Source of the DNA: Escherichia coli
GTDB taxonomy: Bacteria; Pseudomonadota; Gammaproteobacteria; Enterobacterales; Enterobacteriaceae
Direction: 5' to 3' (one strand)
NCBI RefSeq assembly: GCF_013122565.1
Contig: NZ_CP053258.1
Length of the DNA stretch: 64,000 nt
In this document: positions 4,128 to 27,124 of the stretch, piece after piece
Layout of the letters: each line of letters begins with the position of its first letter
Numbering within the stretch: the stretch's first letter is position 1
Program-made: the position numbers and the translations under genes
The notes under the pieces: generated by a model
The model's input: only the letters and a program-made list of their open reading frames with translations
What the model was told of the DNA's origin: nothing
The model's database searches: none

Positions 4128-4702
4128 ACCGGGCCTCCGGTTGTATCGCCGCCTTTCAGGACGCCAGTATGCTGATGCGCATCAACCACGATCCCGTTAG
4201 AACTCATCGCTCCGCCGCCCTGGGTAACGCCACCATTGATCACAACTTCGCTGTTAATGCGCGTGCGGTCAGCCTCCAGTACAAACTCACTGGTTTTCAG
4301 GGTGATATTGTCAGCGGCCTCAATGACCATGGATTTGATGCCCCTGACATACCAGCGCCCGGTGGCGGGTTCGTATTCAAACCAGCCACCGTCTGGGTAC
4401 TCAACCACGTTGCCGTCCTCAGAGTCTGAAGGTGGTGGAAACTGATTTGAGTAGACAGCAGGCAGGGCAAACGCGGTTTCCAGATTGCCACCCAGGCTGA
4501 ACAGCACAACCTGCTCGCCCACAGACGGTTTCCACCAGGTGCGCGATTTGCCCGCGCGCAGTGTCAGCCAGTTAATCCAGTTGGTTTCGAGGTCGCCCGT
4601 TTTCACCCGACACAGCCAGTTTTCCCGGTCCACTTCGGTGACTACACCTGTGCGAATCAGATTGGTGATAAGGCGCATGATTTCGGTTAGTTGTGCATTC
4701 AT
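4124..4702 (-). CDS. Baseplate spike/assembly protein (P2 gpV-like)
   Basis: 192 aa; MNAQLTEIMRLITNLIRTGVV... aligns with P2 V N-terminus. Confidence 0.85.
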   Translation of the reverse strand: MNAQLTEIMRLITNLIRTGVVTEVDRENWLCRVKTGDLETNWINWLTLRAGKSRTWWKPSVGEQVVLFSLGGNLETAFALPAVYSNQFPPPSDSEDGNVVEYPDGGWFEYEPATGRWYVRGIKSMVIEAADNITLKTSEFVLEADRTRINSEVVINGGVTQGGGAMSSNGIVVDAHQHTGVLKGGDTTGGPV

Positions 4703-4750
4703 GTCGACGATATTTGCACAAACATATATTGTGGGACATTGAGTCAGAAA

Positions 4751-4768
4751 TGTATGACTTACTACACA
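4751..4768. promoter_or_regulatory. TGT-N12-ACA dyad (P2-type late promoter activator element) upstream of V
   Basis: tgtatgacttactacaca; P2 late promoters carry a TGT-N12-ACA dyad bound by Ogr-type activators. Confidence 0.3.
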
Positions 4769-4795
4769 ATGTTTATCCGCGCAAAGGAGTTACAG

Positions 4796-5701
4796 ATGAC
4801 ACAAATCGGTATCTATGGATATTGCTTCACGAAAGAATTTACTTTTAAAGGAGGGACACTGATACCTCGTTACAAATCCTTTAAGGAACTAAAAGAGAAT
4901 AAATGCGATGGAAGCGAATATGTATTAAGTGGATTTTTCTCTCCCGCACATGCTTCTGAAAACACCGTCACTCAAATAATTTATGATCTTTCAGCTGTTT
5001 TAAGTTTCATTGAACAAAAAAATGTAATCATATCAAACTTCCTAGAGGAACATGAAACACCTGAAAAGTTAGATAATAATTTCCCACTAAAATTGAAGTC
5101 AAAAAGAAAGTCATCACTAGGAATAATTGTTGAAGATTACTTCTCTGAAAAGAGTCGCTCAGCGTTCATTGAGCTTGCGATGGATAAACTTCATAGAAAT
5201 ATTAATTCTCATCAAAACCCTTTTAGAACTGCGTTCTATAAGTCTATATTTTCTTTTAGGGAAAGAATGGACTATGTAGATGTTAAATACTTCCTTAATT
5301 TCTCAGCATTAGAATCCCTGTGCAGATATATCGATAACGAGTCGACATCTAGTTATACACCACAAATAATTACAAAGGTTTTAAAAGATTATGGTTTTAA
5401 TGTATCTAAAGAAGGCAACCCTGTACCACAAAGAAACGTGATTCACTATTGCACGCTTCGAAACTCTCTATTCCACAATGGAAATTATATTGGATACATT
5501 AAGAAAGATGATCCAAGCAGTATCATTAAATTAAGTGATTATTATTCAAATCTAAATTTACTTTTACCTTTAGTATTAATGAAATATATAGGATTCGATG
5601 ATGGATTAATTAACTGGGACTCATGGATAGACTATGAACCATTTCTCGCCCTCAGGCCTAAAAACTTAACTCCATCGAATGGTAAACAATCAATTAGATA
5701 G
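4796..5701 (+). CDS. AT-rich cargo gene: hypothetical protein with Rx4H motif (HEPN-like, abortive-infection-like candidate)
   Basis: About 301 aa from MTQIGIYGYCF with AGGAG RBS upstream; low GC relative to flanks; antisense to the S-V tail operon; motif RNSLFH. Confidence 0.7.
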   Translation: MTQIGIYGYCFTKEFTFKGGTLIPRYKSFKELKENKCDGSEYVLSGFFSPAHASENTVTQIIYDLSAVLSFIEQKNVIISNFLEEHETPEKLDNNFPLKLKSKRKSSLGIIVEDYFSEKSRSAFIELAMDKLHRNINSHQNPFRTAFYKSIFSFRERMDYVDVKYFLNFSALESLCRYIDNESTSSYTPQIITKVLKDYGFNVSKEGNPVPQRNVIHYCTLRNSLFHNGNYIGYIKKDDPSSIIKLSDYYSNLNLLLPLVLMKYIGFDDGLINWDSWIDYEPFLALRPKNLTPSNGKQSIR

Positions 5702-14108: not shown

Positions 14109-15869
14109 CTATATGCTGCATATTTTTTTATAATGTTCAAAAACATCTTTAAAAGTGTTGAGTATTATTTCAAAACCACTAAAATCAACTTTTCGTTTTT
14201 TATCCCTAACTACTTTCACAGAGAAAACATGTTTCCCATATTCAGTTTTTGAGTCCCCATCGTTCTTTTTGTTAAATTTTTTACCACCAAGAATAGTTGA
14301 TAATACATCATGAGTAAAAAGATCTTCCATCGCAGTCTGCTCACCAGTAGCACTTAAAGGCGTTAGAATGATATAGAGATTTTTAAAGACATGGATAAAT
14401 CTCATTTTTCTCATTTTATTGGTATCATCGGGGCAGCTCTTAACATTATTTTTAAGGAAATTCAAAATCTCATTAGAACCAGAATCGTTGTCCAATACCA
14501 TGATAACCGGGTGCTTAGGAATGCTTCCATAGTAGCTTGAATATTCATCCATATATCTTTCGATGAATTTTTTAAGATCTGCGCTACCTCCAGACATATT
14601 AATAAAATAACTTGACTTCTCATCAGATTTAAAAATATTCAAGTTGATATCATTTCCTTTACCGTCTGTGCTTTTCTTGAGCAACTCAGGAAATTTGGCA
14701 GAAAGTGAACGAATAGCTGATTTTAAATATACTCGATCAGTTTTGCCTTCTGTCAAGATTGTCGGGGAAGCATGTCCATGAAAAAACTTGTAGTAAATAA
14801 ATTTACTATATGCCTTCTCTCGTACATTCAGCTTTAACCTGTAGTTTTTTAATGTAATATGAATAGGCGCATATTTTTCAGGCTGTTTACTTATTTTATC
14901 TTGTATGTTATTAAATTTATCAATCTGGTCAATAAACCCAAATCTTCCCTCTAGTTTTTCGATACTCCCCACGACTAGCTTACCATCTTCATCAGGTAGC
15001 TTATATTCTCCCTTACTATAAAGTGAATGAGCTAATGCTCTTGTTTTATTCGAATATTTCCTATCAACGTTAACAAATCTATTTATAGTAAGTCCCGTAA
15101 CTTCTTGTCTCGTGGATTTGTACGAGATCCTTGTTTTAGCATCATTAATATCAAAACCAGCACGTTTTATTTCACTGACAAGAATGCTCCCCAAGACAAC
15201 CCCCTCAGGAAGAGATATTGCCAAATCGGTAGGAAATTCTTTTTTATTAGTTGAAAACGTGATGTCATCGGCATAACGACTATATGAACAACCTAAACTC
15301 TTTGCTAATTTAGCTAATCTAATATCCATAATGCTACAAATTAAGTTTGTTATCACTGGAGAACACGGGCTACCCTGAGGCAAACTTCCCTTATAGCATG
15401 CGGCTTTAGCTAAAGTAGTGGCGACAATCGGATTTAATAAGAAATCCCTATTGGATAGGAAGTACCCTCTCACTCGCCCAAAATTAAAGCTTTTGAAAAA
15501 ATCCTTAAGATCAATATTGAGTATTATATTTTTCCCACGATGTCTGAAAGCATTGGAAATTATTGACTTATTTCTTTCAAAACCAAAGGAGTAATTGTTT
15601 TTAATTTTTTTAATTTTGAAAGTTTCATCTCTACACTCCATTAAAAGATCGGCTATTCGTCTTTGGAGATCTTTCAAACTATCTTCTGGCGCAGAAATCA
15701 ATCTGACTCCCTTACCTTTTTTTGGAATAGAGAAATCTTTATACTGATTATCAGTACCAATTCTGTAAAGAATATTCGTTAAAAACACCAACTTAACATC
15801 TAGCAATTTTGCCAAGTCAGCACGAGATGCTGCGACTTTCAAAAGTAGTAATTTAGAAGTTGCGACCAT
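14109..15869 (-). CDS. ret: Retron reverse transcriptase with C-terminal TOPRIM domain (RT-TOPRIM fusion; consistent with retron-Ec67 / Retron-Eco2 RT)
   Basis: 586 aa; RT motifs [23 protein letters not shown] (res 199-202); TOPRIM-like TEGKTD (373-378) and VLDNDSG (458-464); strongly AT-rich. Confidence 0.9.
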
Positions 15870-22737: not shown

Positions 22738-22959
22738 CTAGTTGAATACAACATTGCAATCAGTAAGTGCATCAACGGTAAGAGCAGCAAGGTTGATCAT
22801 TACTTTTTCTCTTTTCTTGTCTTTACGAAGACGATGCCGAGGAATGCGACCATCCGCCAACATATCGTTGATTGTGTCGATTGAAAGACCAGTAAGTTCG
22901 CTATAACGCTCGATTGTGACGTGTGGCGTATTCAGAGTTATTGAAATGTTAGGGGTCAT
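22738..22959 (-). CDS. apl: Apl/Cox-like excisionase and lytic-switch regulator (HTH)
   Basis: Start trimmed to [33 protein letters not shown]...; divergent from cI-like gene. Confidence 0.6.
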
Positions 22960-23671: not shown

Positions 23672-25348
23672 ATGAATTCATTTGCCATCGTTATACTCTT
23701 ATTAGCATTTCTCGCCCCTGTTCTAGCTGTAATATTATTTAAACAAAGTAAAAAACACAAAGCGGCTATAGATAACCTGACAGCTAACAACATAGCCCTT
23801 TCTAACCAACTGATTGAAAATCAAGAAAAACTAGCACAGACCGTACGAGAATTATCAGATCTTGAAGGGCGAGCAGCACCATTGTGGCAATACGAAGAAT
23901 TGCACAGCGCAGTAATGGATGCAGAGAATAAGATAAAAAATGCGGACTCAATAGCCAAGCAAAAAATAGATGAAGCCCAAATTAAGGCGGCTAAAACAGT
24001 AAACGAAGCAAATTATCAAGCTCAGATAACAATAAGCAACGCTAATAGCGAAGCTATAGCAATCACCAAAGACGCTCGCGATGCACGCCTGAAAGCCAAA
24101 GAACGTCTTGATAATGCTAATAATAAAGCAAATGAGCTAATCTCAAATGCTAATGACAATGCAGTAAAAATTATTTCTGATGCAGAAGAAAGAGCAAAGG
24201 AGATTGCTGGTTCAGCATATGAAGCTAAAGAGTTTGCAGAAAAATATGAAGCAGTTGCAAAATCAATGAAAAATAAAATTGAAGGTTATGGTGATGAATG
24301 GATCATCCCTAACCGTAGTGTACTTGATGAGCTGGCAGAAAATTATGAATTTACAGATGCAGGCAAGGAATTACAAAAAGCCAGAGAGTTAACCAAATCA
24401 TTAATAAAAACTAATAAAGCTGCTTCGTGTGATTATGTTGAGCAAAACAGGCGTAATACTGCCATAAACTTTGTTTTGGATGCCTTCAATGGAAGAGTTG
24501 ACAGTATTTTATCAAAAGTCAAACACAACAATTTTGGAAAACTTTCCCAAGAAATAAAAGATGCATTTCAACTAGTAAATTACAATGGCTCTGCCTTTAG
24601 GTCCGCAAAAATAAGTGACATCTATCTTCAGGCAAGACTCAACGAGCTAAAATGGGGTGTAGCAGTTAATGAAATTATGCTCGAAGAAAAAGAAGAGCAA
24701 AGAAGGATTAAAGAACAGCTTCGTGAAGAGGAAAGAGCTCGTAGAGAATATGAAAAAGCGATAAAAGAAGCTGAAAAAGAAGAAAAAGCTATTCAGCAAG
24801 CTATAAATAAAGCAACGAAAGAACTTATGCTTGCAAATGAAGAACAACGCTTAGCTTTAGAGCAAAAAATAGCTGAACTACAGTTAAAATATGAAGAAGC
24901 TGAAGCTAAAAATCAACGAGCTATTTCTATGGCTCAACAAACCAGATCAGGCCACGTCTATATCATTAGTAATATTGGTTCATTTGGCGAAGATGTATAT
25001 AAAATTGGAATGACACGCCGCCTTGAACCACTTGATCGTGTTCGTGAACTCGGAGATGCTAGTGTTCCTTTTTCGTTCGATGTTCATGCGATGATTTATA
25101 GTGATGATGCACCATCATTAGAAAACCATCTGCATAAAGTTTTCAACGAAAAGCAGGTCAATAAAATTAACTCACGAAAAGAGTTTTTTAACGTAAATTT
25201 AAAAGAAATCAAATCAGTTATTGAAGACATGAACATCAACGCCCACTGGACAATGTTTGCAGAGGCGAAAGAATATAGAGAGTCTCTAGCTATTGAGCAG
25301 GAGCGCAAAGCAGCCACTTCCGCCAACGATGAACTACATGTTGCTTAG
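23672..25348 (+). CDS. AT-rich cargo gene: membrane-anchored coiled-coil protein with C-terminal T5orf172 (GIY-YIG-like) domain; DUF4041-type architecture; defense candidate
   Basis: 558 aa; N-terminal TM helix, long K/E/A-rich coiled coils, C-terminal GHVYIISNIGSFGEDVYKIGMTRRLEPLDRVRELGDASVPFSFDV; co-directional with cI and int. Confidence 0.85.
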   Translation: MNSFAIVILLLAFLAPVLAVILFKQSKKHKAAIDNLTANNIALSNQLIENQEKLAQTVRELSDLEGRAAPLWQYEELHSAVMDAENKIKNADSIAKQKIDEAQIKAAKTVNEANYQAQITISNANSEAIAITKDARDARLKAKERLDNANNKANELISNANDNAVKIISDAEERAKEIAGSAYEAKEFAEKYEAVAKSMKNKIEGYGDEWIIPNRSVLDELAENYEFTDAGKELQKARELTKSLIKTNKAASCDYVEQNRRNTAINFVLDAFNGRVDSILSKVKHNNFGKLSQEIKDAFQLVNYNGSAFRSAKISDIYLQARLNELKWGVAVNEIMLEEKEEQRRIKEQLREEERARREYEKAIKEAEKEEKAIQQAINKATKELMLANEEQRLALEQKIAELQLKYEEAEAKNQRAISMAQQTRSGHVYIISNIGSFGEDVYKIGMTRRLEPLDRVRELGDASVPFSFDVHAMIYSDDAPSLENHLHKVFNEKQVNKINSRKEFFNVNLKEIKSVIEDMNINAHWTMFAEAKEYRESLAIEQERKAATSANDELHVA

Positions 25349-25430: not shown

Positions 25431-26486
25431 ATGGCAGTACGAAAACTAACCACAGGGAAATGGCTTTGCGAATGTTACCCCGCCGGACGTAGCGGACGCC
25501 GTGTGCGTAAACAATTCGCCACCAAAGGCGAAGCACTGGCCTTCGAGCGATACACCATGGGGGAAATAGAAGCAAAGCCCTGGCTGGGCGAATCAGTGGA
25601 TCGTCGGACACTGAAAGATATGGTTGAGCTATGGTTCAAATTACATGGCAAATCTCTTACTGCCGGACAGCATGTCTACAACAAGCTGCTGTTGATGGTT
25701 GACGCCTTGGGAAATCCCCTTGCAACTGATCTCACCTCAAAAATGTTTGCTCACTATCGCGATAAACGCCTTACTGGTGAAATCTACTTCAGTGAAAAAT
25801 GGAAGAAAGGAGCAAGCCCAGTTACTGTTAACCTGGAGCAAAGCCATCTAAGCAGCGTTTTCAGAGAACTTTCCCGCCTGGGTGAATGGACACTTCCAAA
25901 CCCATTAGAGAAGATGCGCAAATTCACTATCGCAGAAAAGGAAATGGCATGGCTTACACATGAGCAGATTATCGAATTACTGTCTGACTGCAAACGTCAG
26001 AACCCAATTCTGGCACTGGTGGTAAAAATATGTCTAAGTACAGGCGCACGTTGGCGAGAAGCAATCAATCTTACCCGCTCACAGGTCACCAAGTACCGAA
26101 TCACCTTTGTGAGAACGAAGGGGAAGAAAAACAGAAGCATCCCTATCAGTAAAGAGCTTTATGAAGAGATCATGGCGCTCGATGGGTTCAATTTCTTCAC
26201 AGACTGCTATTTTCAATTTTTATCCGTGATGGAAAAAACGTCTATCGTTCTCCCTCGCGGTCAACTGACACACGTTCTGCGCCATACGTTTGCGGCGCAC
26301 TTCATGATGTCGGGTGGAAACATCTTGGCCTTACAAAAAATTCTCGGACACCACGATATAAAAATGACTATGCGTTATGCGCATCTGGCACCGGATCATT
26401 TGGAAACGGCGCTCCGTTTCAATCCACTGGCAACGTTACCAAATGGCGACAAAGTGGCGGCAGCGGTTGGCATTACCCCGCAATAA
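25431..26486 (+). CDS. int: Tyrosine site-specific integrase (P2/186-like)
   Basis: 351 aa; C-terminal catalytic region ...LRHTFAAHFMMSGGNILALQKILGHHDIKMTMRYAHL (R, H-x-x-R, Y). Confidence 0.9.
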   Translation: MAVRKLTTGKWLCECYPAGRSGRRVRKQFATKGEALAFERYTMGEIEAKPWLGESVDRRTLKDMVELWFKLHGKSLTAGQHVYNKLLLMVDALGNPLATDLTSKMFAHYRDKRLTGEIYFSEKWKKGASPVTVNLEQSHLSSVFRELSRLGEWTLPNPLEKMRKFTIAEKEMAWLTHEQIIELLSDCKRQNPILALVVKICLSTGARWREAINLTRSQVTKYRITFVRTKGKKNRSIPISKELYEEIMALDGFNFFTDCYFQFLSVMEKTSIVLPRGQLTHVLRHTFAAHFMMSGGNILALQKILGHHDIKMTMRYAHLAPDHLETALRFNPLATLPNGDKVAAAVGITPQ

Positions 26487-26542
26487 CCACCACTGACCAC
26501 CACATTAAGTTATTGTTTTTTATCTAACTTATTGTTTTTATT

Positions 26543-26570
26543 AACCCATTTAGATAAGTGGGTTTTTTGT
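26543..26570 (+). terminator. Hairpin plus T-tract in the prophage-host junction (terminator; att region candidate)
   Basis: aaccca-tttagataag-tgggtt followed by TTTTTT; preceded by imperfect direct repeats ttattgttttt. Confidence 0.5.
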
Positions 26571-26587
26571 TGCCTAAAATTTATCTA

Positions 26588-27124
26588 CTACCCTGCAACC
26601 CTCTCAACCATCCTCAAAATCTCCTCGCGCGATAGCGGCTTACGGTCGGTGACAAAATGCAGCGTCATCCCCTCAATAAACGCATCAAGCGCGCGGGCGG
26701 TTCCGGGTTCAAACCATTGTTCGAGCGTTTGCTGACTGCGCTGCATCCAGTTTTGCATTACCGTTTTTAATAGCGGTTTTCGGCTAGCCAGCGCGTAGAG
26801 CTGGTACATCAGCTCCATGTTATCCGGCGTTGCCACCTGTGAGCTGTAGATCATATCGGTGATAGCCTGGCATGCGCCTTGAGCATCACGAACATCGCTA
26901 AAAAATGCCTGATATTGCCGGGACATGATCTCAGTAAAACTGCTGAACGCCTCCAGCAACAACTCATCAATTCCTGAAAAATAGTAGGTCATCGATCCCA
27001 ACGGTACCCCGGCAAGGGTAGCAATTTTGCGGTGCGTAACAGCATGTATTCCGTAAAGTTTCACCGCCTCCAGCGTGGCCTGGATAATTTTTTCTCGCCG
27101 TTGCGGATCGTTAGCGCGACGCAT
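26588..27124 (-). CDS. rcdA: TetR-family transcriptional regulator RcdA (YbjK)
   Basis: Trimmed to [21 protein letters not shown]... (178 aa); synteny with ybjJ. Confidence 0.9.

Follow-up and report, generated by a model that had tools for sequence, protein, structure and literature searches.

Positions 26487-26590 of the window, by which we mean the whole 64-kb stretch of Escherichia coli DNA analysed here, are the integrase-proximal junction between the host chromosome and a 186/P2-like prophage inserted into the last 13 bases of rybB. We are highly confident that this arrangement was produced by a temperate 186/P2-like phage (Peduoviridae, of the retron Ec67 prophage type) that integrated into the rybB 3' end by way of its own tyrosine integrase. 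An earlier inspection of the letters by themselves (the sequence-only reading) had proposed a prophage-host junction right after int and beside rcdA, and had placed rybB in the K-12 rcdA-ybjL interval; the K-12 locus is indeed ordered ybjL - rybB - rcdA, and the alignment to K-12, the attP of Klebsiella phage KP12 and the related prophages all agree on the junction.

The boundary can be given to the base by comparison of attB, attP and the junction. Identity between the K-12 empty site and the window begins at 26559 and runs uninterrupted into rcdA: taken in the same direction as the window, the empty site reads ...GGTTGATGGGTTTTTTGTTATCTAAAACTTAT followed by CTACTACCCTGCAAC..., and the window reads ...GATAAGTGGGTTTTTTGTTGCCTAAAATTTAT followed by the same CTACTACCCTGCAAC.... 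In the excised form of phage KP12, int is directly followed by ogr, and its attP, ordered int - arm - core - arm - ogr, agrees with the window as far as 26584, starting in int, before departing into the ogr arm (GCCGTTTAAAATCATG...). The same attP layout is repeated in one IMG/VR contig (L045). This three-way comparison places a core of 26 bp, TGGGTTTTTTGTTGCCTAAAATTTAT, at 26559-26584 on the plus strand, the alignment of the core against the K-12 region that the sequence-only reading had called for. The assignment was made by aligning the K-12 attB, the KP12 attP and both junctions of the E. coli DG341-1 prophage, together with the paired junctions of BL21 and those in IMG/VR; attP and attB have the core in common, and each end of the prophage has a copy of it, as read in DG341-1, BL21 and the Klebsiella phage 4LV2017. 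If the interval were instead purely phage arm, with the true core and host junction elsewhere, the intact rybB at the other prophage end of the relatives and the lack of a RybB model match in the interval would both be accommodated. However, the empty-site identity that starts at 26559 and continues into rcdA, combined with the departure of KP12 from the window exactly after 26584, leaves one copy of the core inside the interval, so that we grant this alternative almost no probability and regard it as already refuted by the three-way alignments. The sequence-only reading had coupled an intact rybB elsewhere with an interval made up of phage arm; the first of these is found in the relatives and the second does not hold, 26559-26584 being a core copy.

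Reading toward this junction is the prophage int (25431-26486, plus strand), a 351-aa tyrosine-recombinase integrase whose open reading frame ends at 26486, where the sequence-only reading had put its stop. The protein belongs to PHROG phrog_1, integrase (E = 3e-75), carries the Pfam domains Int_N (PF24624, aa 57-165) and Phage_integrase (PF00589), displays catalytic-type motifs in its translation (ARWRE, HVLRHT, GHH and RYAHL) and shares 91% identity (321/351) with its counterpart in the rybB prophage of BL21. Positions 26487-26558 are phage arm and contain a pair of 15-nt direct repeats along with the 5' half of a hairpin. Within the core, the crossover segment TGGGTTTTTTGTT (26559-26571) is the same as the last 13 nt of rybB by the positions of the Rfam RybB model and is unique within the 64-kb window, and the host half-site (26572-26584) belongs to the rybB-rcdA spacer. 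Host DNA continues unbroken from 26585. The host gene rcdA (26588-27124, minus strand, its limits carried over by alignment from the DG341-1 annotation) converges with int and is 99.6% identical to annotated rcdA of E. coli genomes; its stop codon at 26588-26590 lies 3 nt past the core, which bears out the earlier placement of the rcdA 3' end. The same reading had seen no tRNA, and ARAGORN finds no tRNA gene across the whole window. Integration at rybB accounts for the lack of a tRNA here, and prophage annotation gains a boundary to the base, with the core at 26559-26584 and host sequence from 26585.

The position of strand exchange within the core is narrowed by junctions at which the two sides differ. 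In BL21 the core copy on the rybB side is TGGGTTTTTTGTT-GCCTGAAATTTAT and that on the int side TGGGTTTTTTGTT-ATCTAAAACTTAT, with 4/4 differences to the right of the 13-nt segment. Among the IMG/VR contigs, ogr-side cores have G[C/T]CT at core positions 14-17 in 35/35, followed by GAAAT, as in attP, in 34/35 (AAAAT in L032), and on the int side the cores have host alleles in keeping with the type of host flank. In Klebsiella the identity of the two junctions stops after TGGGTTTTTTGTTGCCTG. Taken together, the paired BL21 junctions and the unpaired IMG/VR junctions indicate that exchange falls within the invariant 13 nt TGGGTTTTTTGTT, finer cleavage positions being beyond the resolution of sequence comparison. 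This segment takes in the final four bases on the 3' side of the rybB terminator stem, then the U tract and GUU.

The sequence-only reading had suggested that the phage targeted or replaced the 3' end of an sRNA gene. Targeting is borne out and replacement is not, since full-length RybB is present at the other prophage end in the relatives. In the window itself, no Rfam family reaches the gathering score, the RybB model (RF00110) finds no match in 26400-26700 even at E <= 10, and a 38-nt probe for the 5' part of rybB finds nothing in the window at up to 3 mismatches; the earlier failure to see a convincing rybB in the interval is thus upheld, only its last 13 nt being there. The window starts inside tail-fibre genes, its prophage is collinear with that of DG341-1 at 93-98% identity, and by alignment to DG341-1 the far junction lies ~8-10 kb to the left of position 1, outside the window. 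In DG341-1 the prophage sits between ybjL and rcdA, and its far junction reads ybjL - full-length rybB - core - ogr arm, with a RybB score of 104.1 bits against 105.3 in K-12 (Rfam) and a predicted energy of the rybB terminator that barely changes (-21.8 vs -22.4 kcal/mol). Intact rybB likewise abuts the ogr arm in BL21 and 4LV2017, and it lies immediately upstream in 33/35 IMG/VR contigs that have the core and ogr arm, the remaining 2/35 being one attP and one anomalous contig. The search for rybB at the far junction that the sequence-only reading had recommended therefore recovers the full-length gene in relatives, in which the rybB tip is duplicated and the gene regenerated rather than replaced.

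An attP copy of the 3' end of an RNA gene regenerates that gene after integration. Applied to this site, rybB would retain its sequence as far as the crossover and gain an identical phage-borne 13-nt tip, and because that tip is identical the RybB RNA would be unchanged. The gene would end up beside the ogr arm at the far end of the prophage, and the int end would then read phage arm - core - original host spacer - rcdA. The opposite outcome, in which integration destroyed or truncated rybB and left a lysogen without functional RybB, draws on the absence of RybB from the window and on the mere 13 nt of the gene retained at the junction. We consider it very improbable, given the full 79-nt gene at the far junction in DG341-1, BL21, 4LV2017 and the 33/35 IMG/VR contigs, the identical tip supplied by the phage, and the nearly equal predicted terminator energies. 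With the source strain's rybB outside the window, and no match of at least 99% over most of a 24-kb prophage query among complete E. coli genomes, we infer from the relatives that the source strain has an intact copy at its far junction, the sRNA gene being preserved and not lost. For annotation, rybB should be sought ~8-10 kb to the left of the window, next to a far core predicted to consist of TGGGTTTTTTGTT and the phage-type half-site GCC(T/G)TTTAAAATCATG.

The hairpin with a T tract that the sequence-only reading had pointed out (26543-26570, plus strand) is present both by folding and by a terminator scan of the plus strand. Its stem-loop, AACCCATTT-agat-AAGTGGGTT at 26543-26564, has nine pairs (3 G-C) and a 4-nt loop and is followed by TTTTTT, six T on the transcribed strand; it folds at -9.4 kcal/mol (z = -2.55, 1/200 shuffles as good). 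The structure straddles the boundary between phage and core: phage-arm sequence, up to 26558, provides the whole 5' arm and 3 nt at the start of the 3' arm, and att core, identical to the 3' end of rybB, provides what remains of the 3' arm together with the T tract. We consider this hairpin the likely terminator of int. Phage-arm bases AACCCAUUU...AAG would pair with UGGGUU of the core, rebuilding a hairpin and U tract that would terminate int transcription whether the phage is free or integrated, and after integration the RybB and int transcripts, at opposite ends of the element, would both finish in a hairpin and U tract.

Alternatively, the hairpin may have no role in termination and be a by-product of an arm that mimics the rybB stem for recognition by Int, or else a product of chance. 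The stem is weak at -9.4 kcal/mol with only 3 G-C pairs, and terminator-like matches are frequent in the surrounding sequence (7 vs 1.9 expected in a 2-kb region). In KP12 the hairpin also folds, at -9.0 kcal/mol; where it differs, the pair is preserved by a change on one side only (A-U to G-U, U-G to U-A), with no compensatory covariation. Set against these points, the hairpin lies ~57 nt past the int stop on the int strand and runs into a six-T tract, there is no other terminator ahead of the convergent rcdA, and E. coli and Klebsiella phages retain the structure at ~90% overall identity. A hairpin without a terminator role is therefore the less probable account, though one that keeps an appreciable share of our belief, and a terminator for int is the reading we prefer.

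Candidate Int-binding sites flank the core. A 20-mer, TGGCGACAaagTGGCGGCAg, lies inside the 3' coding end of int (26444-26463, plus strand) as its only exact copy in the window, and consists of two TGGCGRCA units 11 bp apart. In the KP12 attP it occurs again in the ogr arm, in direct orientation, 19/20 identical and 183 bp apart; it recurs in DG341-1, BL21 and 4LV2017, and it is found in 35/35 IMG/VR contigs with the ogr arm and in 15/15 with the int arm. Both attP arms have the conserved form TGGCGACAAA(G/A/T)TGGCGGCAG. The arm sites of P2 Int are paired direct octamers, and the arm repeats here resemble the P2 arm consensus. The TGGCGRCA pairs in the two arms are probable arm-type sites for the N-terminal domain of Int, and the 20-mer a candidate for one of them. 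Excision would be directed by a Cox/Apl-like protein encoded upstream, a putative excisionase and repressor (22738-22959, minus strand, phrog_575, E = 4e-31) whose limits were taken from the homologous DG341-1 annotation. Inspection of 26487-26558 by eye revealed no clean match to the IHF consensus WATCAANNNNTTR.

Between the arm site at 26444-26463 and the core are two direct repeats of 15 nt, TAAGTTATTGTTTTT at 26506-26520 and TAACTTATTGTTTTT at 26525-26539 (plus strand), 14/15 identical and 19 bp apart. The twofold 'ttattgttttt' remarked on in the sequence-only reading is part of these longer repeats, at 26510-26520 and 26529-26539. They belong to the phage arm and are not the att repeat, and they are conserved both in the attP of excised KP12 and in 4LV2017. 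Their 14-nt motif has no further exact match in the 64-kb window and 6 matches when 2 mismatches are allowed (1.26 expected). The cI/apl intergenic switch region does not contain the motif, and a reading of the repeats as Apl/Cox operators is left without support. An accessory factor may bind there, or the repeats may serve in bending the DNA.

P2-like integration at rybB is already known from both E. coli and Klebsiella, and in E. coli the locus is a well-known integration hotspot. The int-rcdA junction is present in 1125/5426 complete E. coli genomes (~21%), and the empty site in 4227/5426. The P2-like prophages Rybb*W, Rybb*B and Rybb*Cr of E. coli W, B and Crooks have been described with the 'rybB ncRNA' as insertion site (PMC3032704), the same chromosomal site as here. 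The BL21 prophage, in addition to its closely similar Int, shares its gene order and core with the window's prophage; they differ in the host half of the core (GCCTAAAAT here, ATCTAAAAC in BL21) and in cargo, which here is a retron Ec67-family RT-Toprim gene and PD-Lambda-1 between cI and int, and in BL21 a retron annotated as St85 family (Ec86 in the paper). Among the defence hotspots of E. coli, hotspot #29 has Felsduovirus phages inserted in rybB as its sole occupants (Hochhauser et al. 2023, PMC10121019). These carry up to two defence systems each, and the window's prophage carries two; between it and them we see no substantive difference, and what is added here is the anatomy of the site at the level of bases.

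In Klebsiella, the island Kpn38RybB has been placed 'precisely within' the RybB gene (PMC4048246). The Klebsiella rybB prophages (Kpn38RybB, 4LV2017 and KP12) are ~89-91% identical to the window in DNA across the int region, have the same arm repeats, hairpin and crossover segment, and leave rybB intact at the ogr end. However, their host flank past the core differs (GCCTGCGTTTAGC...), so that the repeat common to the two junctions is only ~19 bp. More broadly, the 3' ends of tRNA, tmRNA and sRNA genes serve as integration sites, examples being P2 at cyaR/ryeE and the ryeB hotspot of Salmonella, with the same restoration of the gene from an attP copy of its end (PMC3603311, citing Williams 2002). 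Compared with sites of the tRNA type, the target here is the terminator of a sigma-E-dependent sRNA, and just 13 transcribed nt are duplicated.

As far as the sources cited in PMC7826664 (Hsu 1990; Dodd & Egan 1996) are summarised there, retron Ec67 resides in a 34-kb element, a 186-related prophage, flanked by 26-bp direct repeats. The likeness to the element as so summarised extends to the 26-bp direct repeat, to a Dam methylase gene, which the window's prophage also carries, and to a retron beside cos and the portal gene. The window's prophage is the same kind of element as the retron Ec67 element. It encodes a 586-aa retron Ec67-family reverse transcriptase with a Toprim endonuclease domain (14109-15869, minus strand; PADLOC RT-Toprim_I-C, E = 6e-213; NCBIfam retron_Ec67_fus, 686 bits against a cut-off of 450), whose gene has the portal gene on one side and the early region on the other, the place where retrons have been described in 186-related prophages; Rfam yields no retron msr/msd RNA at the gathering score. 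The second defence gene, PD-Lambda-1 (558 aa, 23672-25348, plus strand; PADLOC E = 3e-120), is defence cargo of the lysogeny module; its homologue in DG341-1 is annotated as a 'SNIPE associated domain-containing protein'. The rest of the element is of P2 type, the collinear P2-family prophage of DG341-1 having capsid, terminase, portal, tail, cI, cII and replication endonuclease genes.

The remaining loose end is a polymorphism of attB that clusters in the half-site of the core. Comparison of empty rybB-rcdA sites for their core alleles (L001 and L006-L011) separates two classes that differ within the host half of the core only. At core positions 14-26 the E. coli empty site is dimorphic, with ATCTAAAAC, as in K-12, and GCCTGAAAT, which is identical to the phage's own half-site; intermediates such as ATCTAAAAT also occur. 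Between K-12 and O157, 4/4 differences over 241 bp fall inside the half-site (core positions 14, 15, 18 and 22). Two allele-specific 63-nt queries gave near-full-length matches in 2333 genomes for ATCTAAAAC and in 2494 for GCCTGAAAT, sets that overlap by ~600 because intermediate alleles match both (2494 + 2333 > 4227), so these counts are to be read as roughly half each. Since an exchange within the 13-nt segment should not transfer half-site bases, canonical exchange fails to explain the dimorphism. Non-canonical conversion at att, from phage to host or from host to phage, might account for it, as might selection on attB by recurrent lysogeny; we offer these as a doubtful conjecture, and think it unlikely that they hold the answer.

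Several further observations concern individual elements. In BL21 (L062) the int open reading frame ends early (LEV*), with ~0.45 kb and a hypothetical gene before the former int 3' end, which bears the arm repeat; several genes of that degraded prophage are truncated, and Rybb*B appears to be defective. One IMG/VR contig (L046, 7900-8080, minus strand) has the core and ogr arm joined not to rybB but to a lambdoid phage lysis region (...GCAAAAAAAATG meeting GGTTTTTTGTTGCC...), and this lysis region continues differently in E. coli AR_0055; the joint may reflect insertion at a secondary site, recombination or a chimeric assembly. Within the tail/baseplate block of the window's prophage, a 336-aa open reading frame on the opposite strand (4691-5701, plus strand) has no PADLOC match and has a hypothetical gene in the same place in DG341-1; it may be a moron gene. 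Finally, the segment at 190-1233, with tail-fibre and tail-fibre-assembly genes, is inverted relative to its counterpart in DG341-1 (L002, 13894-14991), which adjoins a 'recombinase family protein' gene, and this suggests a Cin/Gin-type invertible host-range segment in the opposite state.
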